DNA of 51,722 nt, the filler included, from Nitrospinota bacterium (GTDB lineage Bacteria; JADFOP01): the NCBI GenBank assembly GCA_022562795.1. It is 3 parts of 3 records of this genome, joined end to end, with 100 filler letters (N's around TTAATTAATTAA, not from the genome) between each part and the next. Parts side by side here need not be neighbours in the genome. Positions count along the whole stretch, not along the records: positions 17,524 to 34,581 come from JADFOP010000044.1; 2 more parts are not named here. One strand, written 5' to 3'. The position numbers were made by a program, and so were the translations under genes. The notes under the pieces are model-generated. The model was not told the DNA's origin, made no database searches, and saw only the letters and a program-made list of their open reading frames with translations. Within the stretch, counting starts at the first letter, position 1, and every line of letters begins with the position of its first letter. This document shows positions 7,262 to 33,956 of this stretch, one piece after another.

Positions 7262-7299
7262 TCTGCCCCGCTCACCTGTAATGACGGGAAATGCTCCAC

Positions 7300-8738: not shown

Positions 8739-9027
8739 CTGCTCCAACCGCGTGAAGTCCATATCCACCGAAACACGTACTATGGCCATGTTAGGCCCCA
8801 GGACCCGCTCTACCATCTCATGAATCCGCTGCTCCATGGGCCCCTCGTACCGACGGTGATACTGGAGCTGGGAGGTGCTCAGTAGGGCCGCATCGTCACC
8901 CTTTTCACCACCCGACAGGGCCCCCCTGATGGCCGACCACCACCAGCCCGACCAAAACCGTGAGGGCAATACGCTGGCCCCAGGATAGGCCAGCAAAGAG
9001 ACGAGCAAATGGTTCAAGAAAGCCCAT
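8739..9027 (-). pseudogene. fliF: FliF MS-ring protein remnant (N-terminal TM joined to an internal segment)
   Basis: The ATG overlaps the upstream stop (TGATG) and reads [30 protein letters not shown]. After a frameshift near 8921-8926 it reads LSTSQLQYHRRYEGPMEQRIHEMVERVLGPNMAIVRVSVDMDF, matching FliF. Confidence 0.8.
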
Positions 9028-11775: not shown

Positions 11776-11885
11776 CTTGTAAGCACCGCCCCTGCCACTG
11801 TTCCTTCCTCTCGAGGGCTCCAGGGTATTCGGCAGCCACCTTGGGCTCATAGCGCCTAACGCTCCGTACTGACTCAATGGAACCG

Positions 11886-11901
11886 TGCAAGAATACTGCC
11901 A
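11886..11901 (-). promoter_or_regulatory. Sigma-54 (-24/-12) promoter upstream of the fleS-like gene
   Basis: Minus strand TGGCAG-TATTC-TTGCA versus consensus TGGCAC-N5-TTGCW, with correct spacing. Confidence 0.7.
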
Positions 11902-11942
11902 TGTTCCGGCAAATAGTTCCTGCCAATCAATAATAGGAGTGT

Positions 11943-11955
11943 TTTCAAAGAGTTG
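11943..11955. promoter_or_regulatory. Candidate IHF site
   Basis: TTTCAAAGAGTTG has one mismatch to WATCAANNNNTTR and lies about 40 bp upstream of the -24 element, where IHF sits in sigma-54 promoters. Confidence 0.45.
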
Positions 11956-12229
11956 AGAAACTACAGGAGGGGACTGGAGAGGTTAAATATGCACTTCGCC
12001 CTGATGTCGTTCGTCGAAATTCCGTCGCAGGGTCAGTGTCCTTGACACTATGACGTTCGGATCACCCAGGCATTCGGGGCGCCTTTTCCCAAAGGAGGGA
12101 ACGAATTTTCCTGATGCGCTGTTGGCCTACCGGGCGACTATCCTAGATTGTGAGAAGATAGATGGTGTTTGGGAAGTAAATATGAGCAGTGAAGTATTGC
12201 TTCAAAGGCCAGTCCAGGGCGCGGTAAGG

Positions 12230-13474
12230 TTATACGCCTTGGGCGGCCTTGGGGAGGGAGATGGTCACGGTCGTGCCCCGGCCCACAGCGCTCTCGACCT
12301 CCACATCACCCTGCTGCGATTTAATAAGATTGTGTGTCATTGCCATGCCCATACCAAACCCATCGTCTCCTTTGGTGGTGAAGAAGGGCTCAAAAATCCT
12401 GGAGCGAACTTCCTGGGACATACCAACACCGGTGTCGCTGACGGCAATGTGAACCGTTCCGCTCCCCTCCCATGTTCGAATGGTCAGCTTTCCACCTTTA
12501 GGCATTGCCTGGATGGAGTTCAAAACGACGTTGATCAGGGCCTCCCTTAGCAGGGCCGCATCGGCCAAGATCGGCCTTTCCAACTTCAAGTCCTTTTGAA
12601 TCTCGATGGATATTCCTTTCGCCAGGACCTCTTTGAATTTGACCCGGAGCATCTCAAGCACGTCCTCTGCCAACTCGTTCAGGTCCACCGGTGTGACCCG
12701 AGGACCAGCCGCCGTCCTAGAGGTAAGTTCATGTAGACGCCTTACGGTCTCGGTCGCGTCCATGACCGTCCGCTCCATGACATCGAGGATACGAAAAGCC
12801 TCCTTGTCGGATTGATCTAGGCGAGGGCTGAGCAGATAGAGGTTTCCAAGGATAAGGCCCAAGAAGTTGTTGAAGTCGTGCGTTTTTCCAATGGCCCTCT
12901 TTGCGAGCACCTCAAACGTTTCGGTCAGGAGGAGCTTCTCCCGGGCCTCGTTCAACCCCTGCCTGGTCTGGTAAAGCTCCCAGGCCGTGGCCAGATGCCG
13001 GGCGAAAATACCCAGGATGGCGTCATCCCACGAGGTGAACCTCTCGGGGCTTGGGCTTAAAAGGACAAATGCCCCCACCGACCGCCCATCCACTACCAAG
13101 GGGGCTCCAAGAAGGGCTCTATGAGCAGTGACCTCGAGGAGAGTTCGATTGCCCCAACGAGGCTCTCGAGAAAGGTCCCGAACAACAAGGGGCCTCCCGC
13201 GACGCATAAGCTCTTTTACGAAAGGCTCGTCAGCCCTGAGCACCTCCTCGACTCTATTGCGGTCCGCTCCGGAGACTCCAGCAAGCTGGAGCTGCCCTGA
13301 GACCTCATCCACGCTCCACATTAGCACGAGCGAAACGCCCCAGATACGATTAGCCACATCGGCCAGGGCCGCTGTGATTGTATCGGGCTCACCCCCTAGG
13401 TCTGACTGGCGAAGGAACGAGACCATGGAGTTCAACATCCTCGCCCTTTTCCCTCTATCGCGACGCCGCGCCAT
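12230..13474 (-). CDS. GAF-domain sensor histidine kinase (cytoplasmic)
   Basis: GAF segment (LLGAPLVVDGRSVGAFVL...FTSWDDAIL), H-box THDFNNFLG, NVVLNSIQAM, DTGVGM, FFTTK, GFGMGM. Confidence 0.88.
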   Translation of the reverse strand: MARRRDRGKRARMLNSMVSFLRQSDLGGEPDTITAALADVANRIWGVSLVLMWSVDEVSGQLQLAGVSGADRNRVEEVLRADEPFVKELMRRGRPLVVRDLSREPRWGNRTLLEVTAHRALLGAPLVVDGRSVGAFVLLSPSPERFTSWDDAILGIFARHLATAWELYQTRQGLNEAREKLLLTETFEVLAKRAIGKTHDFNNFLGLILGNLYLLSPRLDQSDKEAFRILDVMERTVMDATETVRRLHELTSRTAAGPRVTPVDLNELAEDVLEMLRVKFKEVLAKGISIEIQKDLKLERPILADAALLREALINVVLNSIQAMPKGGKLTIRTWEGSGTVHIAVSDTGVGMSQEVRSRIFEPFFTTKGDDGFGMGMAMTHNLIKSQQGDVEVESAVGRGTTVTISLPKAAQGV

Positions 13475-13578
13475 AAGGCCTCCTTGCTCTTCCCGCCGCT
13501 TCCAAAACTAACCCCCCCTCCCTGGGGGTTTTAGTTCCCTCGGCCACATCTTTGGGACCACCCCACTTCCGAAAGATA

Positions 13579-13594
13579 AGCAAAATTCGTTCCA
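13579..13594 (-). promoter_or_regulatory. Sigma-54 promoter upstream of the GAF kinase
   Basis: Minus strand TGGAAC-GAATT-TTGCT with correct GG-N10-GC spacing, about 105 nt upstream of the ATG. Confidence 0.6.
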
Positions 13595-13730
13595 GGGCGT
13601 GGCAGCAAACGTTACCCTGCTGGGGGGGCAGCCCTAAAGGTCTATTAACAAACGCGGTGCGGGATGCAGGATATTTGGCAAGACCCCGGAGCCGGGGGCA
13701 TGGAGGCAGGAGGTGCGTCTTTTAGTGGTG

Positions 13731-15248
13731 TTACTCCGACAAAGGGATAGAAGTCGAGGGGTGCTTCGAATGGCCTAACTCATTAGAACCAAGGGGCATA
13801 TCGTCACTGCGTCCGGGGGGACCCACATCGGTAAAATCCGTGCGACTTAGTGTGGCTTTCTTCATGATTCGCTGGAATGTGCGTCTTTCCATCCCTGAAG
13901 CGCTCGCCGCCTTGGAGACGTTCCCCCCGTGTTTTTCCAGCTGGGCCTTAACGTAATTATACTGGAACTTATCCAAGAAAAGCCGCTTGGCCTCCTTGTA
14001 AGTATGACCTGACGAATCCAAAGTGGAGACCAAGAGACTGGGTGAGGGTGTCGATTTAATGAACTTGGGTGAGAGGTCATCCACGGTTATCTCATCTTTC
14101 GGGCATAAGGCCACGATTCGGGCCACCTCATTCTCGAGCTCCCGGACGTTTCCTGGCCAAGGATGCTCCATCATCGCCTCGACGGCTGTCGCGGTGAAGA
14201 CCTTGGAGGGTGTGTTTAGCTCCGAAGCTGCTTTGGTCAGAAAATTTTGGATTAGCAACGGAATGTCTTCGGTCCGTTCCCTCAGCGGAGGCAAGTGAAT
14301 GGGAATGACATGGAGACGGTAGAAGAGGTCGGACCTAAACTTCCCTTCCTCGACCATTTCGGCCAAAGGCTGATTCGTTGCAGCAACAACCCTGAGGTCT
14401 ACTTTAACCGGGCGGGTGTCGCCAACCCTACGGACTTCACCTAGCTGCAAGGCCCTCAGGAGCTTGGGCTGCAAGGATATATCCATGTCGCCGATCTCGT
14501 CGAAGAAGACCGTTCCGCCATCTGCAACCTCCAGCAGACCTCTCTTGGACTGGTACGCGCCGGTAAAGGCCCCCTTGACATATCCGAAAAGCTCGCTGGT
14601 CAGGAGGGTTCCAGAAAGAGCACTACAGTCTACAACGACAAGGGGCTTGGTGTGCCTGGCGCTTAAGTCGTGGATGGCCGCAGCCACCAGCTCCTTGCCT
14701 GTCCCGGTCTCGCCTTCTATAAGCACAGTGGCGTCGGATCGCGCGGCGCGCTGGATGGTCTTAAAGACCTCCTGCATCTCGGGGCTTTTACCTATGATTT
14801 GATTGAGGGTCCAGGGCCCTTCGATCCTGCTCCACAGGTATTCGTTTTCCCTCTGGAGCTGCAAGCTCTCGGCACCCCTCCGGATTACGTGGAGAAGCTC
14901 CTCGTCGATCAATGGTTTGGTTATGTAATCATAAGCCCCAAGCTTTAGGGACCTTATGGCCGAGCTGGCGTCATTGAGAGCGGTCACCATGATGACGAGG
15001 GGTTGGCCCAGACTATCTTTAATGGTTTCCAGAAGCTTGAACCCATCGACGTCGGGCATCCTGATATCGGAGATTAAGATGTCTATCGAATTTGAATTGA
15101 GCTTCTTAAGGGCCTCCTTGCCGCCCCTGGCGGTGGTGACGTTCAGGTACGGTTCCCTCTCTACGATAGTCTTGATGAGGTCAACCATCAATGGCTCATC
15201 GTCTACGACCAAAACGTTGAACCTGTCCGAGAGGGAAACCTTTTCCAT
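13731..15248 (-). CDS. Sigma-54-dependent response regulator (NtrC/AtoC family)
   Basis: REC, GETGTGKE, GAFTGA, FFDEIG and HTH (GNVSKAASASGMERRTFQR). The start could be 15248, 15254 or 15266. Confidence 0.9.
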   Translation of the reverse strand: MEKVSLSDRFNVLVVDDEPLMVDLIKTIVEREPYLNVTTARGGKEALKKLNSNSIDILISDIRMPDVDGFKLLETIKDSLGQPLVIMVTALNDASSAIRSLKLGAYDYITKPLIDEELLHVIRRGAESLQLQRENEYLWSRIEGPWTLNQIIGKSPEMQEVFKTIQRAARSDATVLIEGETGTGKELVAAAIHDLSARHTKPLVVVDCSALSGTLLTSELFGYVKGAFTGAYQSKRGLLEVADGGTVFFDEIGDMDISLQPKLLRALQLGEVRRVGDTRPVKVDLRVVAATNQPLAEMVEEGKFRSDLFYRLHVIPIHLPPLRERTEDIPLLIQNFLTKAASELNTPSKVFTATAVEAMMEHPWPGNVRELENEVARIVALCPKDEITVDDLSPKFIKSTPSPSLLVSTLDSSGHTYKEAKRLFLDKFQYNYVKAQLEKHGGNVSKAASASGMERRTFQRIMKKATLSRTDFTDVGPPGRSDDMPLGSNELGHSKHPSTSIPLSE

Positions 15249-16045
15249 GGGCATTCCTTTCACCATTCCCTACTAGAGTCTTCGACCAAACATCCAAGCG
15301 GTCCTGGGATGTGATAAGTCTCGAGCAAGCGCCACCTTGTTTACCAAGCGTCAGCTTTTCGGGGGGGGTATTACACACTAGCCCCCGTTTTACGGTAGAC
15401 TTATAATTACCCTCGGGACGAATCACCCTGCCCACTAAAGAACCGGGTGTTTCAGGTGTAAGTCTTAAGTCCCAGTCCCACGGGACAAAGCCGTACTGAA
15501 ACCTGAGCCTTTATATTGCTGAGGAAATAGAAATCAAAGGAGTATAGTTAAAACGTCAGAATTCAACGAAGAAAATTTTACTGTATACTCCCTCCGACCA
15601 CCCTCCCATCCCACGGGTCACTAAACAATATAAACTCTTCCATGCCTCCGTGTCTAGTCCAAAAATCATTTTCCGACGCACGAGGGGGCTTTTTTTTTCA
15701 ATTACAGGGTCCATATTCCAATGATCAAGATTGGGTATGTGCAAGCCCCGACCCCCTATCTCGATAAGAGCAAGCTACCCAACAGGAAAGGGCGGAAATG
15801 CTAAGACCCCCATTCCCAATCCCTTATTGGGAGTAAGTTTTCAGAAGAACCTGAATATGGTGCTGGTTAGGATTCAGCCGTAAGGATTCCCGCCAACAGC
15901 GACAGGCCTCCTCAACCTTAAGAGATCTCTTTTATCGACAGTCTCATCGTGAAGACTGCCCATTTGAGAGGAGCTCCTGAGGCCTTCTTATTAATACTAT
16001 TTCGACCGAAAGCTTTCGAAACGCGGGCGAGAAGTTTAACTTGTA

Positions 16046-16423
16046 CTATGCGTCCGCATCTATCAGTTCCATTGTTGTGGCTATGACTGAATCTAAATAG
16101 TCAAGGTCGACAGGTTTGGTGATGTATTCTAAGGCTCCTTCGGCCCTGGCCATCCGGGCAAGCTCCTCGTCTCGGACAGCAGCGACCATAATAACACTCG
16201 CTGCCGGGTCAATGACCTTGAGCTCACGCAAGACCTGCAGGCCATCCTTGCCAGGCATCCTCACATCAAGCAGTATTACATCAGGCCTTGCTTGATCGTA
16301 GACTACCAAGGCCTGGTCACCATCGTAGGCCTCGACCACGCTGTAGCCCCTTCCCTCGAGAAACCTCCGAACCATCTCACAGAACAAAGGCTCATCATCA
16401 ACCACCAGGACCTTCTTGTCCAT
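16046..16423 (-). CDS. Single-domain response regulator
   Basis: KVLVVDDEP...ILLDVRMP...YITKP. The usual Thr/Ser switch position reads VIMVAA. Confidence 0.88.
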   Translation of the reverse strand: MDKKVLVVDDEPLFCEMVRRFLEGRGYSVVEAYDGDQALVVYDQARPDVILLDVRMPGKDGLQVLRELKVIDPAASVIMVAAVRDEELARMARAEGALEYITKPVDLDYLDSVIATTMELIDADA

Positions 16424-16431
16424 CCTTACCC

Positions 16432-17423
16432 TCAACTATACACCGCTAGTCGCACGATGAAGGCAGCACCGCCTCCAGGGACGTTCTCGGCCCGTATCGA
16501 GCCCCCATGCGAATCAACAATGCCTTGGCATATTGAAAGCCCCAGGCCCGTCCCCTCGCCTTCGCCCTTCGTGGTGAAGAAGGGGTCGAAGAGCTTGCCG
16601 AGGTGCTCAGGGGCGATGCCTTCTCCCGTATCCTCGACTCGAAGCTTCACAAACTTCTGTCCGTTTGTCTGGACCGACTTGGTGCTCAGAGAGAGTCGGC
16701 CACCTTCGGGCATGGCGTCGCGGGCGTTGGTCAGCAGGTTGAGAACTACCTGCTGGAGCTGGTGTTGGTCTGCCGAGACGGGCGGCAGCCCCTCGGCCAG
16801 TTTCAGATCCAATTCAATGTTATCCAACGTCAGTTCGCGCTCCAAAAGGCCGAGCGTCTGCGTGACAATCTCACCGAGGTCGATCCGACGACGCTCCGGC
16901 TCTCGCTGGCGGGAGAAGTAGAGGAGGTTCTGGGTGATTTTCGCTATCCGGTCGGCTTGTTCTTGGAGAATCCGGAGCTGGTCGGTGGTTGCAGGGTGGC
17001 TATCAGGGTCCTTGATCATCAACTGGAGGCTCATCATGATGATGTTGAGGGGGTTTAGAATCTCGTGGGAGACACCAGCGGTTAGTTTCCCAACAGAGGC
17101 CAGCTTCTCGGATCGGACGAGCTGCGCCTGGGTTCGCTCCATGGCCTCGTACGCCTGTTTAAGCTCTTCGTGGGCCTGCCTCCGCTCCTCCTCCGCCTGC
17201 GTGCGCTCCCGCAGGTCCTTGTTGAAACCAACGGTTCCGGCTTCCTCCCCTTCTTCATCGTAAAGTATGGATGCTGAAATCAAGACGGGGATTTGGCTGC
17301 CGTCCTTCGCCCTAAGGATCGTCTCGAAGGCCGATACCGCACCGTCCTCTTTGCGCATCTGGCGCATCACCTCTTTCGCCCGTTCCTCACTTTCGTAAAG
17401 TAACGTCACACGCTGGCCGAAAA
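16432..17423 (-). CDS. PAS histidine kinase, 5' end cut by the contig end
   Basis: PAS/PAC, SEKLASVGKLTAGVSHEILNPL, NLLTNARDAM, GTGLGL. The frame runs into the N linker. Confidence 0.88.
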
Positions 17424-17523
17424 NNNNNNNNNNNNNNNNNNNNNNNNNNNNNNNNNNNNNNNNNNNNTTAATTAATTAANNNNNNNNNNNNNNNNNNNNN
17501 NNNNNNNNNNNNNNNNNNNNNNN
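17424..17523. other. Artificial contig-joining linker
   Basis: 44 N + TTAATTAATTAA (stops in all six frames) + 44 N. Confidence 0.97.
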
Positions 17524-18161
17524 CTTCTAACAGAGCGAAAAGCTCTCGACAGAATGGCGAGCCGCAACTTTCGCTGGCATCAGCCCAATCGAAGACTGCC
17601 GCGGCGGCGGAGGCGGCTGCCGCGGGCACCACGCTCGGTCAGCTGGCCACTGCCCTCGGTTTTCACGCCTCTGGTGTCCAGATTCAGCCGCTCGAGGCGA
17701 GAAGTTTTGCGGGGCCTTTCGAAGAACTCCGTGACGCGACCGACAACTGGCAGGCGAAACATGGTCGGCGTCCGCGTGTGTTTCTGGTGAAAATGGGCCC
17801 CCTCGCGCAGCATACGGCTCGGGCTGCGTATGCGAAGAATTTCTTTGAAGTCGGCGGCTTTGAAGTGGTGACCGACGACGGATTTCAGACGGATGCCGAC
17901 GCTTCGGTCGCCTCGTTCCGCGAAAGCGGCGCCTCGATCGGTGTGATCTGTTCCTCTGACAAACTCTATCCGGAACTCGTGCCGAAGGTCGCGCGCGAGC
18001 TCCGGGCAGCCGGCGCGCGGTCGGTCGTGTTGGCAGGTAATCCGGGAGACAACGAAGCGACCTGGCGCGATGCTGGCGTTGATCGGTTTATTTTCAAGAA
18101 GTGCGATGTGCTTGCCACGCTGCGAGAAATGCTCCAAGAGGAAGGAGTGTTGACGACATGA
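17524..18161 (+). CDS. mutA: Methylmalonyl-CoA mutase small subunit, C-terminal part (5' truncated)
   Basis: Open from 17526: ...[10 protein letters not shown]...[31 protein letters not shown]...VICSSDKLY...VVLAGNP. ATGA overlap with the large subunit. Confidence 0.85.
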
Positions 18162-19429
18162 CAACCATCCCCGATTTCGCGGTTGTGCCCCTGAACTCCA
18201 CCGCCGGCCGACATGCGAGCAGGAAGGATTGGACCGACCTGGTCGGTGAGCCGCAGCAGCTGCCCGCGTGGCAGACTCCTGAGAAGATTCCCGTCCAAGC
18301 GCTCTACTCCGCGGCTGATCTGGAGGACGTCGACCATCTCGAATCGATGCCGGGCTTCCCGCCTTTTCTGCGCGGGCCGTACGCCACGATGTACGTCACG
18401 CGCCCCTGGACCGTGCGGCAGTACGCCGGCTTTTCCACTGCCAAGGACTCCAATGATTTTTACCGACGCAATTTGGCTGCCGGGCAGATGGGGTTGAGTA
18501 TTGCCTTCGACCTGGCCACGCATCGCGGTTACGACTCCGACCATCCCCGCGTTGTCGGCGACGTGGGCATGGCGGGCGTGGCGATCGACAGCATTGTGGA
18601 CATGCGCACCCTCTTTCAGGGCATTCCCTTGGATCGCATGAGCGTGTCGATGACGATGAACGGCGCCGTGCTGCCGATCATGGCGCTGTACATCGTGGCG
18701 GCCCAAGAGCAGGGCGTGTCACCCGAGCAGCTCGCCGGCACGATTCAGAACGATATTCTCAAAGAATTCATGGTCCGCAACACCTACATCTACCCTCCTG
18801 AGCCAAGCATCCGCATCATTGCGGACATCTTTGACTATACCAGCCGGCGGATGCCCAAGTTCAACAGCATCAGCATTAGCGGTTACCACATGCAAGAGGC
18901 CGGGGCCACGGCCGACCTGGAGCTCGCTTACACTCTGGCGGACGGATTGGAGTACGTGCGGACCGGCATCAAAGCGGGTTTGGAGGTCGACGCCTTCTGC
19001 CCAAGACTCTCCTTCTTCTGGGCAATCGGGATGAACTACTTCATGGAGGTGGCCAAGCTGCGGGCCGCACGCATGATCTGGGCCAAGCTCATCAAGCAGT
19101 TCGAACCCAAAAACCCCAAAAGTCTGTCGCTCAGAACCCATTGCCAAACCAGCGGTTGGAGTCTCACGGCGCAAGACGTCTATAACACCGTCGTTCGCAC
19201 CTGCCTGGAAGCGATGGCCGCTACGCACGGTCATACGCAATCGCTGCACACCAACGCGCTCGACGAGGCGGTGGCCCTGCCGACCGACTTCTCGGCACGC
19301 ATCGCACGCAACACGCAGCTGTTTCTGCAGCAGGAGACCGACACCTGCGACGTGGTCGACGCCTGGGGAGGCAGCTACTATGTAGAGAAACTCACCCACG
19401 ACCTGGCCTGCCGCGAACTCGATGCCTAA
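18158..19429 (+). pseudogene. scpA: Methylmalonyl-CoA mutase large subunit, truncated (no B12-binding domain)
   Basis: RGPYATMY...[12 protein letters not shown]...[11 protein letters not shown]...[11 protein letters not shown]...[15 protein letters not shown], then an abrupt switch at about 19408 to the antisense of a permease. The truncation may be an assembly artefact. Confidence 0.85.
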
Positions 19430-19771
19430 AAGCAGAGTGAGGAAGGCAATATAATAGATCACCATGGTGTGGGTTGAAATGACGTACGCCATGACTGTGG
19501 CCGGCGCGGCACCAGCTCTCCACAGTTCACCTGCTGTAGCCAGTGCCGTGCTTCGACGGGGCGAATGGGTGGCCCCCATGCCCAAGGCGGCCACGACTGC
19601 ACGCAAGGATCCCTGAGCCTCGAGGGTCCGTCGGCGCAGGGGATTGTGAGCCTTCAGGGCCAGCAAGCCCCATACCAGCAGGCCCGGCACCCAGACCCAG
19701 TACATCATCTGGAAGATATGCTTAGAGAGAAAATACGAATAGGTAAGGCCCTCTCGGGCAAATTCAGCCAT
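19395..19771 (-). CDS. Permease (DUF318/ArsP_1-like), N-terminal part, 3' truncated at the junction
   Basis: Multi-[17 protein letters not shown]...[11 protein letters not shown]...[26 protein letters not shown]...[14 protein letters not shown], resembling the L..KGA....MAF.IS/LLG.EF pattern of this family. Confidence 0.6.
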
Positions 19772-19824
19772 CAGAACCTCTTGGCCTCCTTCTCATTCCC
19801 TCAACGAGCCCGAAGAGTTCTCCG

Positions 19825-20334
19825 TTACTGCGCCTCGAAGGACTCCAGGCGGAGCGCTACTGGGTCGCCCTCCTCCACCGAGCCCATAACGAGAATCTCT
19901 TTCCCTTCAAGCTCTGCTCTGACCTGCAGGTTCTTAAGGACGTCGTTGTCGATGAGCGCGAAGGTCTGCGCGCTACCAGCGGCCTGGAAGACCGGGCTCC
20001 CTCCGCGGCTTGCCACCATCCCCCGCACCCTGGCCTTCATCCACGTGGGGGTAAAGCCGGTATCTTTAATGGCGCCTCGCAGGAGCTCCGGCTTCAGGGG
20101 AGCCCCCTCTTTCAGCGTAATCGTCCCCATCGCATCTTCTAAACTGACCTCAACTTTATCCACGCCTTCCAGGCGGGCGAGGGCCTTACGGGCCCCGTAA
20201 GCTCACGTGGGTCAGACCATGCCGTCGATGCCCATGGTCACCTGGACGGCCTGAGCCTGGGCCGCCGTCGGGAACACCATCCCCGCCACGAGCAGGCCTG
20301 CGAGCATAAGCCAGATGAACCGGTATTTTGCCAT
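19825..20334 (-). CDS. Exported heavy-metal-associated (HMA) protein with two in-frame TGA codons in the metal-binding motif; putative UxxU selenoprotein, 169 aa
   Basis: RBS AAGGAG, ATG at 20334, signal peptide MAKYRFIWLMLAGLLVAGMVFPTAAQA, then QAVQVTMGIDGMV*PT*AYGARKALARLEGVDKVEVSL...LRGAIKDTGFTP. The TGAs are at 20214-20212 (codon 41) and 20205-20203 (codon 44), in frame with the listed ORF 19825-20163. Confidence 0.85.
20163..20201 (-). promoter_or_regulatory. Two candidate bacterial SECIS hairpins
   Basis: mRNA CUUACGG-GGC-CCGUAAG (20201-20185) starts after a 10-nt spacer from UGA1. CGCCU-GGA-AGGCG (20175-20163) has its loop about 32 nt after UGA2. Both loops start with G. Confidence 0.55.
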
Positions 20335-20361
20335 GACCTGTTTTCTCCTTCACCAAAGTGG

Positions 20362-21258
20362 TTAAAATAAGTAGCGCAGCCCTAAGAGGACATTGTAGTC
20401 CGTCTCCGGCTGCGTTCCGTTAAGCTCTTGCACGACTGGAAGTTGGACCGAGCCCTCAACAATAACCGTGTTGATTAGGAACTGGAGTCCCGGAGCGACG
20501 AAAATGGTGTCGCCCCCCGAGTTTTCCACCTTCCGGCCGGCGAGCTCGTGTTTCTCCACGTGCTTTCCGTTGAGCTCCACGGTGAGGTTGAGCTGGGAGT
20601 TTTCAATTTGAGGCGGAAAAATCTGATACTGGTACGTGAGGTCATAGCGGACGGTATCGCCGAGCTCGAACTCCTCACCTTTGGTGTTTATCTGGTACTG
20701 CGCCCCGCCTTCGAGGCTGTGGGTGCGTCCGGTCCGCCCGAGGGCTACCCCGAAGAACGGATCGACGGAGCCAGAGCCCAGCTGAAGCGAGATGGGCAGG
20801 AGGGCCCCGAGGTTATCCCTCTCGCTATCCGAGCCCGTCGGGACCTCCAGTCCCCCAAAGACCGCCGCCTGAGTAACCCCGAACGGAACGTCCTTGTGCC
20901 AAAACCGGTATTTACCCGTCACCCGGACGTCGCCCAGCCCGTGGGTGGAGCGGACGGAGGTCGTCCCGCCGCTGGTCACCTTCAGCCGCTTCTCCACGTA
21001 GGGAACCGCCACCGCCAGCGTGGCATCGGGCATGATCTGGTACTGGGCGATAGCCGGAATCCTGTATATATCAAGCTCTTTCGAGCCGTCTTCCTTGTGG
21101 ACCAGCTCCCCGAAGGTCCTGAGAGCCGTTCCCTCCACAAAGGTCGTCCGGGGAGAAAGCCCCCGAATGGGGGCCGCCCACGACTCAATCGGGAGGAGCG
21201 ACAGTAGGAGAACCAGCAGAGTTACCAGCCTAATGGCGCCAATTCCTTTCACGACCAC
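20362..21258 (-). CDS. Outer-membrane beta-barrel transporter (Phenol_MetA_deg / SphA-like)
   Basis: Signal peptide, VPYV...GLGDVRVTGKYRF...VPTG...LQLGSGSVD, amphipathic strands and C-terminal LGLRYLF. Confidence 0.75.
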   Translation of the reverse strand: MVVKGIGAIRLVTLLVLLLSLLPIESWAAPIRGLSPRTTFVEGTALRTFGELVHKEDGSKELDIYRIPAIAQYQIMPDATLAVAVPYVEKRLKVTSGGTTSVRSTHGLGDVRVTGKYRFWHKDVPFGVTQAAVFGGLEVPTGSDSERDNLGALLPISLQLGSGSVDPFFGVALGRTGRTHSLEGGAQYQINTKGEEFELGDTVRYDLTYQYQIFPPQIENSQLNLTVELNGKHVEKHELAGRKVENSGGDTIFVAPGLQFLINTVIVEGSVQLPVVQELNGTQPETDYNVLLGLRYLF

Positions 21259-21262
21259 GTCC

Positions 21263-21532
21263 TCACTCGACTCCGACTCCCACCTCCCGCAGGACCGCCT
21301 CGCTCACGGTAGAGCGCGTGCAGCACTCCGCCAGACGGCCGTCAACCACCACAGCCGGGACGGCGTTGACGCCGTATCCCCGGGCCCGGCTTACGGCCTC
21401 GCCGTCGGCCCTGAGATCGTGGACCACAACCTCGCAGGATGGGCAGGCGAGCCCCTTAACCAGCGCGACCGCATCCTCGCACAGCGGGCATCCCGCCGTG
21501 AAGACTTCCACCTGTCGTTTCACCGATGTCAT
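21263..21532 (-). CDS. Small Cys-rich thioredoxin/glutaredoxin-like protein
   Basis: VEVFTAGCPLC...LACPSC...YGVNAVPAVVVDGRLAECC, with RBS AAAGGAGG. Confidence 0.85.
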   Translation of the reverse strand: MTSVKRQVEVFTAGCPLCEDAVALVKGLACPSCEVVVHDLRADGEAVSRARGYGVNAVPAVVVDGRLAECCTRSTVSEAVLREVGVGVE

Positions 21533-21603
21533 TAGTGTTTCCTCCTTTGCTGTTGGTATCGGCCGAGCCCTTGAAAAGAAGGGCAACGACGCTTTATATT
21601 CTG

Positions 21604-21635
21604 AATATAGAGATTCCAGCTAACTGGAAGGTCAA
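21604..21635 (-). promoter_or_regulatory. MerR-type promoter/operator
   Basis: Minus strand TTGACC-N20-TATATT with the dyad TTCCAG-TTAG-CTGGAA (21629-21614) inside the elongated spacer. A MerR-family gene is adjacent and divergent. Confidence 0.8.
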
Positions 21636-21663
21636 GAAGAAAAGGGAAAAAAGGAGAAAAAAA

Positions 21664-22071
21664 ATGGCCGATGGGCAAAAATTATTGATCGGCGAGGCGG
21701 CTAGGCGGGCGGACCTCAACCCGAAAACCATCAGGTTCTACGAGGAGATGGGCCTGATCTCACCGCTGGGGCGCACTCCCAAGGGCTATCGCCTCTTTGA
21801 CGAGGAGGCGGTATCCCGTCTAGGCTTCATAAAGAAGGCTCAGGCCCTCGGCTTCACCCTGACGGAGATCGGCGAGATTCTGGCTCTCAGGGACGGCGGG
21901 GCCATGCCGTGCGACCACGTGGAGGTCGAGGTGACCCGCAAGGTGGCGGCTATCGAGGAGCGGATCGCCGAGCTTACCCGCCTCAAGACTTCTCTGGAGA
22001 CCCTCCTTGAGAGGTGGAAGGAGGCGGAAGCCTCCGGCGCCGCCGTCTGCCCCCGCATCGAGTGGACCTAG
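21664..22071 (+). CDS. MerR-family heavy-metal-responsive regulator
   Basis: LLIGEAARRADLNPKTIRFYEEMGLI...GYRLF...FIKKAQALGFTLTEI...PCDHV...VCPRIE. Confidence 0.92.
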   Translation: MADGQKLLIGEAARRADLNPKTIRFYEEMGLISPLGRTPKGYRLFDEEAVSRLGFIKKAQALGFTLTEIGEILALRDGGAMPCDHVEVEVTRKVAAIEERIAELTRLKTSLETLLERWKEAEASGAAVCPRIEWT

Positions 22072-22793
22072 CGCAACAAAAACCGGATCGCCACAATAAG
22101 GATTGCCGCCATGACGACCCGCTGGAGAGTCGCCTCGGGGAGGCGCATGAGGCCTCTTCGGCCGATCCAGGCCCCGGCGAAGGCGCATACAACGAGCGGC
22201 GGGACCAGCCAGTAGAGCTCGGCAGGCAGCGCCCCCCATGGCAGGTAGACCGAGAGGCGGGCAGTATCGACGGCCACGGCGATGGCGGCCGAGGTCCCGA
22301 TGTAGGCCTCCTTGCTGAGCGGCGTGGCGATGAGGAAGGCCCCTCGGATGGCCCCTCCGAGGCCGATGAGCCCGCTGGTGAAGCCCGAAAGGATCCCTCC
22401 GACGACGAGGGCCTTATCGCTCGTCGGCACCCGCCAGGAGCGGCCCGCGAGCGACGAGACGGCGTAGGCCCCAAGAAAGAGGCCGAAGGCGAGCCGTAAA
22501 GGCCGAGTCCCCGAAAGCATGGTCAACAGAAACGCCCCCAATGCCGCGGCCAGCAGGCTCGGCGCGCCGTAGATAGCCGCCGTTCGCCGGTCGACATGGC
22601 TCCGCATGAACCAGAGACGGGAGGCATTGGCGAGGAAGTGGAAGATGGCCACCAGGACGATGGCTGGCTCGAGCGCGACAAACAGGGTCGTGAAGGGCAG
22701 CAGCACCGTGGCCGTGCCGAACCCTGTCACCGCCGCCATGGCCGAGGCGAAGAGAGCGACGGCGAAGAAAGCTGAAGCGGCGATAAAACCCAT
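22068..22793 (-). CDS. Sulfite exporter TauE/SafE (TSUP) family protein
   Basis: Multi-TM protein with TGFGTA and SGLIGLGGAIR glycine motifs. Convergent with the MerR gene, sharing the CTAG stop palindrome. Confidence 0.8.
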   Translation of the reverse strand: MGFIAASAFFAVALFASAMAAVTGFGTATVLLPFTTLFVALEPAIVLVAIFHFLANASRLWFMRSHVDRRTAAIYGAPSLLAAALGAFLLTMLSGTRPLRLAFGLFLGAYAVSSLAGRSWRVPTSDKALVVGGILSGFTSGLIGLGGAIRGAFLIATPLSKEAYIGTSAAIAVAVDTARLSVYLPWGALPAELYWLVPPLVVCAFAGAWIGRRGLMRLPEATLQRVVMAAILIVAIRFLLR

Positions 22794-22807
22794 GGGACAC
22801 CCCGAGG

Positions 22808-23833
22808 CTACGGTCCGTCTGATAACGCTTTGAGGATCTCATCCCGCTCGTAGCGCGGAAGGGGGCGCTCGGCCCCGTCGGCCCCGACGAGCAGGCAGCC
22901 GTCCGCCTCCTCGGTGGTCCGGCCTATGGTGGCCACCTCGACCCCGGCTCGTGCGACCGCCCGCCGGGCGGCCTCGGCGGCCTCGGGCCTGCAGGCGATG
23001 AGAAGGGCCCCCGAGGCGATAGTCCCCAGGGGATCGATGCCGAAGGCATCGCAAATCGCGCGGCCCTCGCTCACGATGGGGATGGCGGCCTCTTCGAGCC
23101 GCACGCCGACACCCGCCGCGCGGGCGAGCTCGTGGCAGGCCTGGGCGAGGCCCCCTTCGGTGGGGTCGTGCATGGCGCTCACTCCCTCGACGGCGGCGGC
23201 CGCAAGGGCCTCGTCTACCACATTGATCCCAGGCTCGACCAAGAGCGAGGCAGCCCGGGCGATGACCTCTTCTGCCACCCCTTTGGCCCTGAGCGAGGCG
23301 GCGCAGTCGGTGGCCAGGATGGCGGTCCCTTCTAGGGGGACCGCCTTGGTCAGTAGCAGCACGTCTCCGGCCTCGGCCCCAGAGGTTGTTATGAGCCGTC
23401 TTCCGTCAGTCTCGCCCAACATGGTTCCGGACAGGATGGGCCTCTCCAGGCCCCGGCTCACCTCGGTGTGGCCCCCTATGACGGCGACCCCCAAGGCCCG
23501 GCAGGCCCGGCCCACCTGATCGGCAAGGGCTGAGGCCATACTCCAGTCAGCAGAGCCCTCCGGCATACAGCAGGTCCATAGAAACCAGCGGGGCCGAGCT
23601 CCGTAGACGGCGACATCGTTGGCGTTAACCGCCACGACGTAGGCGCCCGGCTCTTTGGTGGCGAAGGTGATGGGGTCACTGGCCACTACGAGGTAGCTCT
23701 CCCCGAGGTCCAGCACAGCGGCGTCCTCGCCCGGGGCAGGGCCGACCACCAGCCGCTCGTCGGCCGTGGGGAGGCGCTCCAAGAGGCGGGCCAGCTGGTC
23801 CAGGGTGAGCTTTCCCTCGGCAAGAGGCTCCAT
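22808..23833 (-). CDS. AIR-synthase-family (HypE-like) protein
   Basis: GKL...VGPAPGEDAAV...ASDPIT...VNANDVA...GGHTEV...AMHDPTEGGL...DPLGTIASGALL. Confidence 0.85.
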   Translation of the reverse strand: MEPLAEGKLTLDQLARLLERLPTADERLVVGPAPGEDAAVLDLGESYLVVASDPITFATKEPGAYVVAVNANDVAVYGARPRWFLWTCCMPEGSADWSMASALADQVGRACRALGVAVIGGHTEVSRGLERPILSGTMLGETDGRRLITTSGAEAGDVLLLTKAVPLEGTAILATDCAASLRAKGVAEEVIARAASLLVEPGINVVDEALAAAAVEGVSAMHDPTEGGLAQACHELARAAGVGVRLEEAAIPIVSEGRAICDAFGIDPLGTIASGALLIACRPEAAEAARRAVARAGVEVATIGRTTEEADGCLLVGADGAERPLPRYERDEILKALSDGP

Positions 23834-23968
23834 GGGCTTGCCCTCAAGCGGCCATAAGGTAACAGCAGCCCCGGTGGTTTGCAAGGGCTCGGAAGGCGCT
23901 CCATCCCCTTCCACGACAAGGTGCGCGTTCCCCTAGGTAACCGTAACGGATTTACCTATAAAACGATG

Positions 23969-25192
23969 TTAATTAGAGGCCGCTACCTGGAATATTCGCT
24001 TTTTCCCGACCTTGATGAGATACGACGCGCTGGGCGGCGGAGGCAACTCGAGCTCGGAATCTGTAATGCGCTCCCCGTCGATGGAGACAGCCCCCTGGTC
24101 GATCAGACGGCGGGCCTCGCTCGAGCTGGCTGCCGCCCCGACGGCTACGAGAAGCTTCGGCAGCCACATGAGATCGTCCTCCCAAGGTACCTCCACGGCG
24201 GGGATCTCGTCGGGCAGCCCGCCTTCGCGAAAGACCAAATCGAACTCCTCGGCGGCGCGACGGGCGGCTTGCTCCGAATGGAATCTGGCGACGATCTCCT
24301 CGGCCAGCGCCACCTTCGCATCCCTGGGGTTCATCTGCCCGGCTTGACACTGCTCCTTCCACGAGAGGACCTCGCTCCGAGATCGGTCGGAGAGCAGTTC
24401 AAAGTAGCGCCACATGAGATCGTCCGAGACGCTCATGAGCTTGCCGAAGATCTCCCGTGGGGGCTCGTCAATGCCGATGTAGTTGCCGAGACTCTTGGAC
24501 ATTTTCTGGACGCCGTCGGTCCCCTCCAACAGGGGCATGGTGATGACGATCTGTGGCGGCTGGCCGTAAGACCGTTGGAGGTCGCGGCCGACAAGGAGGT
24601 TGAACTTCTGGTCCGTCCCTCCCAGCTCGACGTCGGCCTGAAGGGCCACCGAGTCGTAGCCCTGAATCAGAGGGTAGAGGAACTCGTGGATGGCTATCGG
24701 ACGATGGTCGGTGAAGCGGCGGGAGAAGTCGTCCCGCTCAATCATCCGGTGGACGGTGTATCGCATGGCGAGCTGGATGAGACCCTCGGCGTCCATGGCG
24801 CGCATCCACCGGGAGTTGAAGTCGACGACCGTCAGCTCCGGGTCGAGAATCTTGAACATCTGCTTCCGGTAGGTCTCTGCGTTAGCCTCCACCTCTTCCC
24901 GGCTTAGAGAGCTTCGAGTCTCGGACGAGCCGCTTGGGTCGCCGATCATCCCGGTGAAGTCGCCGATGAGGAAGATAACCTCGTGGCCCAATATCTGGAA
25001 GTGGCGCAGTTTCTGAATGAGGACCGTGTGGCCTATGTGGAGATCGGGCGCTGTGGGATCGAAGCCGGCCTTGACCCGAAGCGGCCGGCCGCTCTCGACG
25101 GCCTCCTTGAGGCGGTCGGCCAATTCCACCTCGGTAAGAATCTCCTCTACCCCTTGGCGGATTAGCTCAAGCTGTTCGTCAACTGGCCGCAT
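23969..25192 (-). CDS. tyrS: Tyrosine--tRNA ligase
   Basis: [27 protein letters not shown] and a C-terminal S4-like domain. Confidence 0.97.
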
Positions 25193-25271
25193 AGGGGACG
25201 GTCCTCTGCTGGAGAGACTGCTGTGGGCTTCTACCACATCGACAGAATTGAGACAAGATGACGCCCTCGCC

Positions 25272-26543
25272 TTAAGGCTCGTCAGGGTCTGGCGTGGCTG
25301 CCGGCGGCTCGATGATTTCGACCAGTACCGACTTGACACTCCTATCATCGGCCTCATTAACTTTAAGGCGAGCCCCTCGAACCTCCACGGCTTGGCCCGG
25401 ACGAGGGATGGTCTCCAGGTGGGTGAGAAGGAAGCCGCCCAAGGTCTCATAGTCACCGAGGGGCAGCGCCAGGCCAAGCTCCTCCTCAAGGTGGTCTAGC
25501 TCCATTCGGGCATCCACCATGTAGGACCCATCCGGCAACTCTTTATACCATGCCTGCGAGGCGTCGTACTCATCATGAATCTCCCCTACAATCTCCTCGA
25601 AGAGGTCCTCGATGGTCGCGATCCCGACGGCCCCACCGTACTCGTCCACGACGACGGCCACATGCATTTTCTCTTGCTGAAGCTCGCGCAGGAGGTCGTC
25701 CTTGCGCTTTGCCTCGGGCACGTAGTGGACGGGCCTTATGATGTCCTCGATTGTGCTCACATTCTCGGGCAAGATAAGGAGGTCGAAGGCGTTGACGAGC
25801 CCGATTATGTCATAAATCTCGTCCCGGTATACCGGGATGCGGGAAAACCCGCTTGTAACGACCTTGTCAATGACCCTCTCCGGGGTTGCGTCTGCGGGCA
25901 CGGCGACGAGATTCACCAGTGGGACCATCACCTCCTTGACGGGCGTGTCCCCGAACTCGAAGATGCGCCGGATCATCAGCCGCTCCCCAACCTCCAAGTC
26001 CACTCCCCTCTCGGAGCTATGGACCAAGCTCTCGATTTCTTCCTTCGTAACGAAGGGGCTGCGGGCGGGCGCCTTACGGGCCACGAGGAGCCGAGCGACC
26101 CCTCCGACAACAATGCTGATGGGTCGAAAGGCTACCATCGCCCACCGAAGCGGGCGGATGACGCGAAGAGCCAGGCGATCAGCGTTCTCCTGAAAGATCG
26201 TCTTCGGCAAAATCTCGCCGAAGACCAAGGCAAGCGGCCACATGAGGAGGAGCGCGTATAGCTCCCCGGCCCCCCCAAAGAGGCGGATAAGTGCGACCGT
26301 AGCCAAGGTCGTCGCCACCACGACGGAGATATTCGTTCCCACCAAGGTTGTCGCTAGCAGCTGGTCAGGGACCTCGAGCAAATCAAGGAGACTTTGGGCT
26401 CGCCTGTCGCCATGGTCTGCCCGGTGACGCAACCGGATTCGGTTGGCCGAGATGACGGCTATCTCCGAGCCTGAGAAAAACCCCTCTAGGCCGACGAAGA
26501 CCGCGACTAGCAGGAGGTCTATCCAGAACCAAGCGTCGATCAT
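25272..26543 (-). CDS. CNNM (DUF21)-CBS-CorC/HlyC family membrane protein
   Basis: [29 protein letters not shown]...[18 protein letters not shown]. Confidence 0.92.
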
Positions 26544-27796
26544 GGCGTCCTCTTGACCTGAACTTCCAGGATACGTAGCCCGGCGGTCTTCTCGACGGTG
26601 AATGTCAGGTTTTCATAGGAGATCGTCTCGCTAGGCTTAGGCGGGCGCCCGAAGAGATGGAACACGAACCCGCCCACGGTGTCAAATTCATCCTCGGGCA
26701 GGCTAACCTCGGTCACGGCACTCAACTCGTCTAAGGGCGCCTTGCCCGCCACCCGCCACTGCTCCCTTCCCACAAGACTGATGAGCTTGACGGCGGTGTC
26801 GAATTCGTCGGCGATCTCGCCGAAGAGCTCCTCCAGGATGTCCTCCATCGTGACGAGACCCGCCACCCCGCCGTGCTCATCGGCGACGATGGCCATATGG
26901 ACCTTCTCGGCCTGGAACTCCTGGAGCACCTCGCTGACGAGCTTCGTTTGGGGGACGAAGTAGACGGGGCTTAGGGCGTCTCGAAGGCGCCAGCTATCGC
27001 GGTCGCCCCGGCGGGTGACCTTGAGGAGGTCTTTGACGTAGAGAATCCCCACGATGTTATCCAAACGCCCTAGGTATACCGGCAATCGGGAGAAGATGGA
27101 GCGACGGACCAGGGCGAGCACGTCCTCAAAGGTCGCCTCCTCGGCGAGACAGGTCATGTCACCCCGGGGGGTCATGACTTCGCTGACTCGCGTATCGCCG
27201 AATTCGACCACCGAATGAATGAGCTCCTTTTCCTCGGCATCCAACACGCCCTCGGCATGTCCCACCTCCACGAGGGTCTTGAACTCCTCTTCGGTCAGGC
27301 GGGCCTCGCGGGCCTTTGCCTTGCTCCCCGCGAGAGGGGCAATGAGGTTGACCAGTCCGACAAAGACGACCCTCACCGGGGTGATGAGCCACCGAAAGGC
27401 CATCAATGGCCTGGCCACGAGCCTGGCGTGGGACTCTGGCCGGTGGACGGCATACGTCTTCGGGACGACCTCGCCAAACAAGAGCAGCAGGAGGATCGAA
27501 ACGGCCATCGCGTAGAACTTTCCGGCAGGCCCAAAGATACTCAACGCCACGGCGGCAACTAGGATGGAGACCGAGACGTTGACGAGTTCGTTTCCGATTA
27601 GGAGGGTCACGATGAGCTGGCGTGGCGCCTCCAGGAGCCGGGCGATTGCTCGAAGGCTTTTCACCGGCGCACTCTTATACTTTCGGACCCGAAAGGGGCT
27701 GAGGCTGAAGAGAGCAGTTTCCGATGAGGCGAAGAAGGCCGAAAGGACAAGGCAAAGGCCTATGAGCCCAAAACGCAGGAGATTTTCAGGGGCCAT
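26540..27796 (-). CDS. CNNM (DUF21)-CBS-CorC/HlyC family membrane protein (tandem paralogue)
   Basis: FFASSETALFS, FGEVVPK, FSRLPVY, DEHGG...TMEDILEELFGEIADEFD. The ATG at 27796 overlaps the upstream TGA. Confidence 0.92.
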   Translation of the reverse strand: MAPENLLRFGLIGLCLVLSAFFASSETALFSLSPFRVRKYKSAPVKSLRAIARLLEAPRQLIVTLLIGNELVNVSVSILVAAVALSIFGPAGKFYAMAVSILLLLLFGEVVPKTYAVHRPESHARLVARPLMAFRWLITPVRVVFVGLVNLIAPLAGSKAKAREARLTEEEFKTLVEVGHAEGVLDAEEKELIHSVVEFGDTRVSEVMTPRGDMTCLAEEATFEDVLALVRRSIFSRLPVYLGRLDNIVGILYVKDLLKVTRRGDRDSWRLRDALSPVYFVPQTKLVSEVLQEFQAEKVHMAIVADEHGGVAGLVTMEDILEELFGEIADEFDTAVKLISLVGREQWRVAGKAPLDELSAVTEVSLPEDEFDTVGGFVFHLFGRPPKPSETISYENLTFTVEKTAGLRILEVQVKRTP

Positions 27797-28284
27797 CACG
27801 TGACCGAAGACCCCCTCTGAGCACGCCTCGTCTGGTAGGCCTGGATTATTGGGCGGGCGATGAAGTAGGCGACGAGACCCGCTATGACACCCGACGCGAT
27901 CGCTCCAACACAAAAGGGCCAGAGCACCGGTTTTAGAGCATCCCAAATTGCTAAAATTTCCATCTCCTTCCACTCTATCCGTAAGGATGGCGGGGAGCTC
28001 CCCGTAAGGAATAGTCCAAACCAGAAAGCGCCGCCGTAGATGGGTGCGATAGTCCAGGGATTGTTCACAAAGGTGCCTGCAATAAGGACCGGGACGCTGA
28101 ACCGCCCCACCCAGGCTATGGTCAACGCCAGGATGGTGTGTACACCCATGACGGGGAAGAAGGCAAGGAAGACCCCTATGGCGAAGGCCAGGGCCACGCG
28201 ATGGGGGGAATCATCGACCCGGAAGATAGAGACGAGGCGCTCGCGGATGCTTTTGGACTGGGAGCTGGAATCTGACGAGTCCAC
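27796..28284 (-). CDS. DUF2062 family membrane protein
   Basis: DDSPHRVALAFAIGVFLAFFP...GTFVNNPWTIAPIY. Probable GTG start just after the thiL stop. Confidence 0.8.
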   Translation of the reverse strand: MDSSDSSSQSKSIRERLVSIFRVDDSPHRVALAFAIGVFLAFFPVMGVHTILALTIAWVGRFSVPVLIAGTFVNNPWTIAPIYGGAFWFGLFLTGSSPPSLRIEWKEMEILAIWDALKPVLWPFCVGAIASGVIAGLVAYFIARPIIQAYQTRRAQRGSSVT

Positions 28285-28291
28285 GGAGCTT

Positions 28292-32896: not shown

Positions 32897-32925
32897 GAAC
32901 GTCTAACCTCTCTCAGGGTATGATA

Positions 32926-33948: not shown

Positions 33949-33956
33949 CTGCGGCG

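Follow-up and report, generated by a model that had tools for sequence, protein, structure and literature searches.

Does a bacterial gene with two in-frame TGA codons inside 12 nt encode a protein that carries selenocysteine (Sec, U) at both positions, and what would such a protein do? This question is raised by a gene on the minus strand (20334..19825) of a 51,722 nt stretch of DNA from the Nitrospinota bacterium assembly GCA_022562795.1. The whole stretch, which we refer to as the window, joins three contigs (1-17423, 17524-34581 and 34682-51722) by N spacers at 17424-17523 and 34582-34681, and the gene lies on the middle contig. Judged from its sequence and that of its relatives, it very probably encodes a secreted metal-binding protein in which both metal-holding Cys residues are replaced by Sec; we call it the UxxU gene.

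A single frame with two internal TGA codons

The gene and the elements at its 5′ end were read as follows:

19825..20334, minus strand: predicted selenoprotein gene of the UxxU HMA-OB type, 169 codons plus TAA, translated with TGA as U
20345..20350, minus strand: ribosome-binding site AAGGAG, 10 nt before the ATG, read from the sequence
20254..20334, minus strand: predicted Sec-type signal peptide, codons 1-27 (MAKYR, hydrophobic core, AQA)
20212..20214, minus strand: TGA-1, codon 41, predicted Sec, TGA in 8/8 homologous loci
20203..20205, minus strand: TGA-2, codon 44, predicted Sec, TGA in 8/8 homologous loci

With TGA translated as U the protein begins MAKYRFIWLMLAGLLVAGMVFPTAAQAQAVQVTMGIDGMVUPTUAYGARKAL, and the frame runs on to the TAA. 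Its only internal stops are the TGAs at codons 41 and 44, and the translation contains zero Cys codons. The first-pass annotation of this DNA had described a ribosome-binding site, an ATG and a signal peptide leading in frame into GIDGMV-TGA-PT-TGA-AYGARKAL, in a protein lacking Cys, and all of this was found again on reading the sequence; the coordinates it gave are right, the gene being read from the minus strand. The signal peptide was called by eye and not by a predictor, and residues 1-25 have a predicted local distance difference test (pLDDT) score below 50 in the AlphaFold2 (AF2) model. Similar N-termini are present in all eight loci that carry the gene and in the Cys-containing homologues described below.

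Conservation of the two TGA codons and of the surrounding coding sequence

Both TGAs stand at the same columns in all eight homologous DNA loci (the window, L001 and L029-L034). The proteins of the loci that keep them are about 40-74% identical to the window protein, and the residue between the TGAs varies among T, V and I. L001, obtained by a genome scan, comes from a metagenome-assembled genome (MAG) labelled Nitrospinae bacterium, here G001, and holds a full-length homologue that is 74% identical and has both TGAs, with U-PV-U where the window has U-PT-U. The six further loci were obtained in a second metagenome scan that used as query a group of ~111-aa proteins, whose source names are those of NC10/Methylomirabilota, Binatia and Tectimicrobiota MAGs. 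Their layout is the same as in the window, a signal peptide leading into G[IV]DGMI-U-PI-U-[AT]YG. A first metagenome scan with the close-family alignment had given 32 pattern matches with zero confirmed, and a phylum-wide genome search around G001 covered two genomes. A tblastn search of a plasmid collection returned 45 records, all below 60% identity and confined to the HMA domain (MerA N-termini and MerP), none of which covered 80% of the query.

The sequence on each side of the TGAs evolves as coding sequence. Between the window and L001, 60 of the 103 nucleotide differences across the whole gene fall at third positions, as do 14 of the 21 differences in codons 1-40, upstream of TGA-1. Homologues with TGA at both sites and coding-type conservation on either side of them, both of which had been proposed as checks on the first-pass annotation, were therefore found.

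The bases themselves recur in independent assemblies. Twenty runs from seven studies of marine or other sediment metagenomes contain at least half of the sampled words. When the contigs of four runs (four studies) were compared, none of the six TGA bases had a variant listed. An X2 contig (19860-20538) and an X3 contig (20191-20281) span both TGAs with 0 differences, the X4 and X5 contigs show four differences each, at positions that are not in the variant table, and one X3 contig varies at 20206 and 20207, that is, in codon 43 between the two TGAs. Confirmation of both TGAs in raw reads had been called for; what was compared here are assemblies, and those of at least two other studies show both TGAs.

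Truncated database relatives and full-length cysteine homologues

The first protein search gave 24 hits, 23 of which were close (64-96% identity), all of them 101 or 112 aa long and spanning the C-terminal 60-66% of the query. A profile search gave 799 hits at E≤1e-5 among 8000 candidates scored, and the best 120 of these are all 71-138 aa long. The listed relatives fall into three start classes, at codon 69 or at codon 58 (in each case with nothing before it) and at codon 42 (M-TCAF, ~130 aa, CopZ by source name). Short relatives that start at codon 42, 58 or 69 are the pattern expected if gene callers stop at the TGAs. The anticipated truncation by gene callers is thus seen throughout the 120 listed relatives, which are downstream pieces with none longer than 138 aa.

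In the proteins P0025 and P0093-P0127 (~130 aa, 'copper chaperone CopZ'), the aligned members all begin M-T-C-A-[FY], one codon past the first U column. Judged from this alignment, the codon-42 class is probably a UxxC form of the same HMA-OB family, in which the first Sec codon truncates the annotation.

Homologues with Cys in the loop were found with L027 as query, a fragment of a CxxC paralogue that, like L001, belongs to G001. These CxxC homologues are 168-175 aa long and have a signal peptide, VDGLACPFCAYG, an HMA domain and a C-terminal domain as in the window protein. Cys occupies both U columns in each of the 16 that were aligned (C-P-F-C; DGLACPFCAYG), and 15 of the 16 align through the C-terminal domain. 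This is the matching architecture that had been sought as a check, and it agrees with the first-pass placing of both TGAs on the two Cys positions of the HMA loop. The full-length CxxC HMA-OB proteins, named 'heavy-metal-associated domain-containing protein' (e.g., P0198 from a Nitrospirota MAG), resemble the window protein in architecture and in the loop D-G-x-x-C-P-x-C-A-Y-G, but are only 25-35% identical to it and have Cys instead of Sec. Among the 16 aligned Cys forms (e.g., P0143, P0207 and P0242), eleven have a His-rich loop, EGHxxHP, in their OB domain, which is absent from the Sec forms; this loop may represent a second metal site that was lost on the gain of Sec, or the reverse.

RNA-level constraint downstream of the TGA codons

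Synonymous sites were compared across the eight sequences at alignment columns with an invariant residue and a degenerate codon. Within codons 45-60, a single codon is used in all eight sequences at 7 of 10 such columns, compared with 1 of 24 elsewhere in the gene (Fisher test, p=1.6e-4). Two consensus hairpins were predicted here:

20180..20196, minus strand: hairpin A, GGGGCC / 5-nt loop / GGCCCU (RNAalifold consensus, columns 19-35)
20160..20177, minus strand: hairpin B, CCCGCC / UGGAN loop / GGCG-U-GG with a bulged U, candidate Sec insertion sequence (SECIS) element (RNAalifold, columns 38-55)

Hairpin A starts 15 nt past TGA-1 and 6 nt past TGA-2. Its six pairs are kept in all eight sequences, with two one-sided C>U changes that retain G-U pairing. 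In hairpin B the six pairs are invariant in all eight, the GG of the loop is conserved and the synonymous sites are frozen, so that over both hairpins 96 of 96 pair-cells are paired (12 pairs in 8 sequences). Guanosines in the loop of bacterial SECIS elements are highlighted in a figure legend of the 2007 Olavius paper, and hairpin B has such guanosines. By spacing, hairpin A would suit TGA-1 and hairpin B would suit TGA-2. A perfect 7-bp hairpin directly past TGA-2 in the window was dropped, as it is broken in L001, and single-sequence folding of the 86 nt past TGA-1 was no better than that of shuffled sequences (z = -0.27).

Selenocysteine machinery in a relative

The Lon and tyrosyl-tRNA synthetase genes on the target's own contig share 83-84% nucleotide identity with G001, the genome that holds L001. 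In G001, selA (616.7 bits) lies next to selB (368.3 bits), and the genome also encodes a selD that itself contains an in-frame TGA (343.4 bits) and a tRNA-Sec (79.9 bits; tRNA-SeC with anticodon tca according to ARAGORN). A search for selA, selB, selC and selD had been proposed; all four are present in this relative, but in the window itself just a fragment of selD was found, and a tRNA scan of the window returned 0 genes. According to the BSepDB description, MAGs that are labelled Nitrospinae and belong to phylum UBA8248 rank with the bacteria richest in selenoproteins, which would fit the Sec-dense L001 locus.

The selD fragment that the first-pass annotation had noted at 50606-50933 is a real SelD match: window positions 50609-51004 (minus strand) align with positions 244-341 of the 347 in the SelD profile NF002098 (54.1 bits), and G001 SelD is 66% identical over 32 aa to window 50977-50882. 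However, it comprises the C-terminal third only, lies on the third contig and is fused in frame to a PAS/histidine-kinase N-terminus. One open frame extends over 50606-51721 (minus strand); it encodes PAS domains and the beginning of a histidine-kinase core and then, from a junction near 50935, the C-terminal third of SelD. The junction stems either from a chimeric assembly or from a genuine rearrangement. An AIRS-family open reading frame (ORF) at 22808-23914 was considered as SelD and rejected, as its scores (hypE 111.4, thiL 105.5 and selD 89.3 bits) are all below cut-off and it is 28% identical to G001 SelD. This AIR-synthase-family protein adjoins a TauE/SafE-type exporter just outside the gene cassette described below (22068-23914, minus strand). 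A true thiL is located in the window at 28292-29308.

Fold of the protein

The protein was divided into two domains:

20044..20247, minus strand: HMA domain (ferredoxin-like beta-alpha-beta-beta-alpha-beta), residues ~30-97 (Pfam PF00403 and AF2 model)
19828..20043, minus strand: C-terminal OB-fold domain, residues ~98-169 (AF2 model)

Pfam HMA matches residues 36-94 with an E value of 2.5e-9 (37.8 bits against a cut-off of 24.8), and the secondary structure of the AF2 model is that of the HMA fold. Modelled with the family alignment, the protein has a pLDDT of 84.2 overall and above 85 in each 10-residue block from residue 31, and the last strand of the HMA domain runs on into the second domain. 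The best solved match of the HMA part is MerP in its oxidised disulfide form (1osd_A; E 4.1e-5, template modelling (TM) score 0.84 normalised to MerP, 31% identity). The first-pass reading of an HMA-like domain followed by a further domain was therefore correct, and the latter is modelled as an OB fold.

Folded alone, the C-terminal 74 residues reach an AF2 pLDDT of 90.8 in the order b1-b2-b3-helix-b4-b5 (E3-15, E18-23, E29-32, H36-43, E51-59, E65-73), a five-strand barrel with the helix between strands 3 and 4. Its structural matches include the NlpE C-terminal domain (Foldseek TM 0.70, best E 3.2e-3), Stn1, single-stranded DNA-binding proteins, YgiW and SilF, and hold at the level of fold class only, as all have Foldseek E>0.001 and VIA Z<8 (NlpE 7.3, YgiW 6.5, SilF 6.2; top 7.9, below the guide value of 8). 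Within these limits the domain resembles the small periplasmic OB barrels of the NlpE C-terminal domain, YgiW and CusF/SilF. The metal site of CusF is unlike the conserved columns of the domain, which lack Met, His and Trp.

By sequence the OB domain is nearly an orphan. Searches of Pfam and NCBIfam gave no match for it, and as a query on its own it yielded four hits at E≤0.001 in 1.84 billion representative proteins, with its own cluster alone below 1e-10. Cys is likewise missing from its invariant and nearly invariant columns. Because no Cys, His or Met is conserved, we read the domain as probably a docking module and not a second metal site.

A conserved four-gene cassette and its surroundings

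The UxxU gene is the last gene of an operon within a cassette that is common to the window and L001:

19814..22071, no strand assigned: four-gene cassette common to the window and L001 (blastn, 2.26 kb, 78-84% nucleotide identity)
21664..22071, plus strand: divergent MerR-family metal-sensing regulator, 135 aa (NCBIfam scores; conserved in L001)
21604..21635, minus strand: MerR-type promoter, -35 TTGACC, 20-nt spacer with dyad TTCCAGTTAGCTGGAA, -10 TATATT (conserved in L001)
21263..21532, minus strand: Cys-rich thioredoxin/glutaredoxin-like gene (CPLC, CPSC, CC), the operon's first (Pfam Thioredoxin_3, Glutaredoxin; conserved in L001)
20362..21258, minus strand: outer-membrane barrel gene (Pfam Phenol_MetA_deg, E 3.5e-10)

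The barrel gene is located directly upstream of the UxxU gene in all eight loci. A complex prediction for the barrel and the OB domain gave a score of 0.00 and carries no weight either way. The regulator scores 101.3 bits as MerR (cut-off 150.85), 96.9 as ZntR and 88.8 as CueR (cut-off 147.4) in NCBIfam, and none of these passes. The spacer dyads are ACCTTCCAG-TTAG-CTGGAA in the window and ACCTTCCAG-TTTA-CTGGAAGGT in L001. They agree with the published HmrR/CueR copper-regulator signal ACCTTCCAG-(3)-CTGGAAGG and not with the Hg-MerR signal TCCGTAC-(4)-GTACGGA (PMC1526738), with a centre of 4 nt versus the published 3, and the 20-nt spacer falls within the 19-20 bp of CueR/HmrR-type promoters. 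Pfam and NCBIfam scans found no merT or merA in the cassette, and in G001 no merA passes its cut-off.

The homology to L001 ends just past the stop codon and the contigs of three other runs diverge at 19820, which indicates that the surroundings of the cassette differ between strains. Downstream of the cassette the sequence is mosaic: in other runs there are contigs that part from it at 19617 and 19820, while an X3 contig of 89 nt spans 19782-19870 in the arrangement seen in the window. There, an ORF at 18101-19429 (plus strand), which we take by eye to be methylmalonyl-CoA mutase-like, stops short and abuts an ArsP-like permease ORF at 18719-19771 (minus strand), of which only residues 23-132 match the family.

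Downstream of its UxxU gene, L001 encodes MerT-like membrane proteins and thioredoxin-fold proteins, themselves with in-frame TGAs. A small membrane protein at L001:6542-6853 (plus strand) reads ...SLLPNI-U-U-ILPLVFAAVG..., with two adjacent in-frame TGAs at the site of the MerT-type Cys pair, and matches NCBIfam weakly (MerTP_fusion 25.9 bits, merT_RC607 21.7 bits). Such a vicinal UU pair would be unusual; a literature passage on MerT-family selenoproteins mentions CU only. About 1.7 kb downstream of the UxxU homologue, L001:8169-8843 (plus strand) encodes a MerT/CopZ fusion-like protein in which three TGAs stand in frame, one in PNU and two in a further UxxU motif (GMV-U-GA-U); it scores 86.6 bits against NF041115 and 74.9 bits against NF045683, each below cut-off. 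By eye, two apparent selenoprotein genes flank it, one glutaredoxin-like with SSPG-U-SSC (~7900-8161, plus strand) and one of thioredoxin fold with SPT-U-GVC (8861-9589, plus strand), and an ArsR-type regulator is located at 6987-7352.

Relation to known systems

The first-pass annotation had overstated the novelty. A UxxU HMA family is already curated as NF041115 ('UxxU_metal_bind'), and UxxU metal-binding selenoproteins are included in passages of two reviews. NF041115 is the best NCBIfam hit of the window protein, with a score of 46.5 bits where the cut-off is 95 and an alignment to positions 1-47 of the 74 in the profile, and the L001 homologue scores 43.4 bits. Given the score below cut-off and the partial coverage, the window protein is not a member. 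The two share the HMA fold and have both loop Cys codons as TGA, but NF041115 is a 74-position single-domain model, whereas the window protein also has a signal peptide and an OB-fold domain of 72 residues. Another curated example of an HMA loop with Sec is NF045683, a MerT/CopZ fusion-like heavy-metal transport selenoprotein, of which the protein at L001:8169-8843 is a relative. NF045683 differs in having a MerT-like membrane anchor and no OB domain, and the window protein scores 26.2 against its cut-off of 375.

MerP (TIGR02052; PDB 1osd) likewise combines a signal peptide with an HMA domain and its two-ligand loop. However, the window protein reaches 39.3 bits against a cut-off of 92.55, has Sec for Cys and carries the extra OB domain. 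The cassette also departs from mer operons in its lack of merT and merA and in its copper-type operator. In the main text of the 2007 Olavius paper, the lone relevant entry is a 'Putative mercuric transport protein', and a literature search combining selenoprotein, HMA domain and selenocysteine, which covered papers and not their supplements, matched no paper. What is new here with respect to the catalogued UxxU kind is the exported HMA-OB architecture, the tandem hairpins and the conserved cassette.

Interpretation and alternative explanations

Taken as a whole, these observations are best explained by a genuine two-Sec selenoprotein, an exported HMA-OB binder of soft metals within a metal-sensor cassette, and we consider this explanation likely. 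The two UGAs, 9 nt apart, would both be read as Sec by SelB and tRNA-Sec, and the insertion would be guided by the pair of conserved hairpins that lie in tandem within the ~45 nt of coding sequence downstream. The product would be exported through its cleavable Sec-type signal peptide. The mature protein would form a rigid two-domain unit, with U41-P-T-U44 displayed on the HMA loop that connects strand 1 to helix 1. Fold, signal peptide and gene context suggest a periplasmic soft-metal binder with two selenols or a diselenide, as originally proposed. Most likely, the two selenolates would hold a single soft metal ion between them in the periplasm, either Hg(II) or one of Cu(I), Ag(I) and Au(I). 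The divergent MerR-family sensor, acting at its CueR/HmrR-type operator, would switch on the UxxU gene together with the genes of the thioredoxin-like protein and the barrel, while the OB domain may dock the carrier to a partner, for which the co-conserved barrel is the obvious candidate.

Several points weigh against this explanation. The metal cues conflict, as the operator is of the copper (HmrR/CueR) type whereas the best score of the regulator is that for MerR, the nearest match of the HMA domain is MerP and the L001 neighbours are MerT-like. In the oxidising environment of the periplasm, the resting state of the two Sec residues of a UxxU motif may be a diselenide of great stability, and no exported or periplasmic reductant is among the products of the cassette. 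SelA, SelB and tRNA-Sec are seen in the relative G001, the window itself offering the one selD fragment on another contig, and no RNA run containing the gene is listed among the 20 runs. In the hairpins, compensatory double changes occur at 0 of 12 pairs, so that the structure is conserved, yet covariation gives no proof of it, and another purpose could explain part of the nucleotide conservation past the TGAs. Rfam detects no SECIS family over the window at gathering thresholds and, at E≤10 over 20080-20260, only a chance snoRNA match of 8.2 bits. Finally, hairpin A starts just 6 nt past TGA-2 and the hairpin B loop lies ~40 nt past TGA-1, so that the two UGAs, 9 nt apart, might be served by one element or by both.

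Among the alternatives, a redox function survives best, although we judge it unlikely. The UxxU pair would then alternate between a diselenide and a diselenol state and might, for instance, reduce or oxidise a partner protein or a chalcogen or metalloid substrate in the periplasm. According to passages in reviews, redox proteins make up the majority of the catalogued prokaryotic selenoproteins that have a CxxC-type motif, and both the thioredoxin/glutaredoxin-like first gene of the cassette and the oxidised form of the best-matching MerP structure would be in line with such a role. However, the fold is HMA and not thioredoxin, the loop D-G-[ML]-x-[CU]-P-x-[CU]-A-Y-G is common to proteins that are source-named mercuric-ion-binding protein or CopZ, and the operon promoter is of the metal-sensor type.

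That the UGAs are not Sec codons at all appears less probable still. As real or leaky stops they would give a 40-residue peptide and a separately started downstream product, or they might be read through as Trp or Cys. Gene callers indeed annotate downstream pieces of 101-130 aa only, and Sec insertion is what we infer. Yet the part upstream of the TGAs, with its frame, signal peptide and first HMA strand, is conserved and changes in the manner of coding sequence, and a downstream piece alone would be without strand 1, metal loop and export signal. Furthermore, the CxxC homologues are single full-length proteins, and G001 possesses the full Sec machinery, with further Sec genes adjoining its copy.

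Two in-frame stops so close together, on a metagenome-assembled contig with mosaic junctions nearby, might also mean that the gene is a pseudogene hit by two nonsense mutations, or that sequencing or assembly went wrong. We regard this as highly improbable, and the first-pass annotation had called two independent nonsense mutations unlikely: the same two TGAs recur in 8/8 loci from different samples and lineages and in the contigs of other studies, and third-position changes dominate the differences between the window and L001. A genome-wide reassignment of TGA to sense (code 4 or 25-like) has nothing in its favour beyond the two TGAs themselves and can practically be dismissed, as TGA serves as a normal stop more often than any other codon in the window, closing 13 of 24 long ORFs including Lon with its end-to-end profile match, and also terminates the L001 copy of the UxxU gene.

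Returning to the two-Sec metal binder, a more far-reaching proposal can be made for the family, which we put forward tentatively and with considerable doubt. The HMA-OB family may use Sec obligately in some lineages, as UxxU in Nitrospinae-like and NC10/Methylomirabilota-type bacteria and probably as UxxC in a third group, with one dedicated tandem SECIS hairpin per UGA. The protein would be the periplasmic shuttle of an envelope metal relay that consists of the barrel, the di-selenolate carrier and the Cys-rich thioredoxin-like partner, under a copper-type MerR-family sensor. If true, one SECIS hairpin per UGA would be an undescribed arrangement for bacterial Sec insertion, and the envelope metal relay would likewise be undescribed.

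Meaning for the family

UxxU HMA selenoproteins had previously been predicted computationally, and nothing is overturned by the present analysis. Its value for annotation concerns a widespread family of sediment, soil and groundwater that is recorded as headless 101-130 aa 'hypothetical' or 'CopZ' pieces, and to which recognition as an HMA-OB family gives back the signal peptide and the metal site. The conserved four-gene cassette ties an outer-membrane channel to a predicted periplasmic metal carrier. The gene is also a compact test case for the way in which bacterial ribosomes handle two Sec codons that are three codons apart. Furthermore, the family offers a natural Sec/Cys series on one scaffold (UxxU, probably UxxC, and CxxC) from which it may be learned what selenium adds to soft-metal binding outside the cytoplasm.

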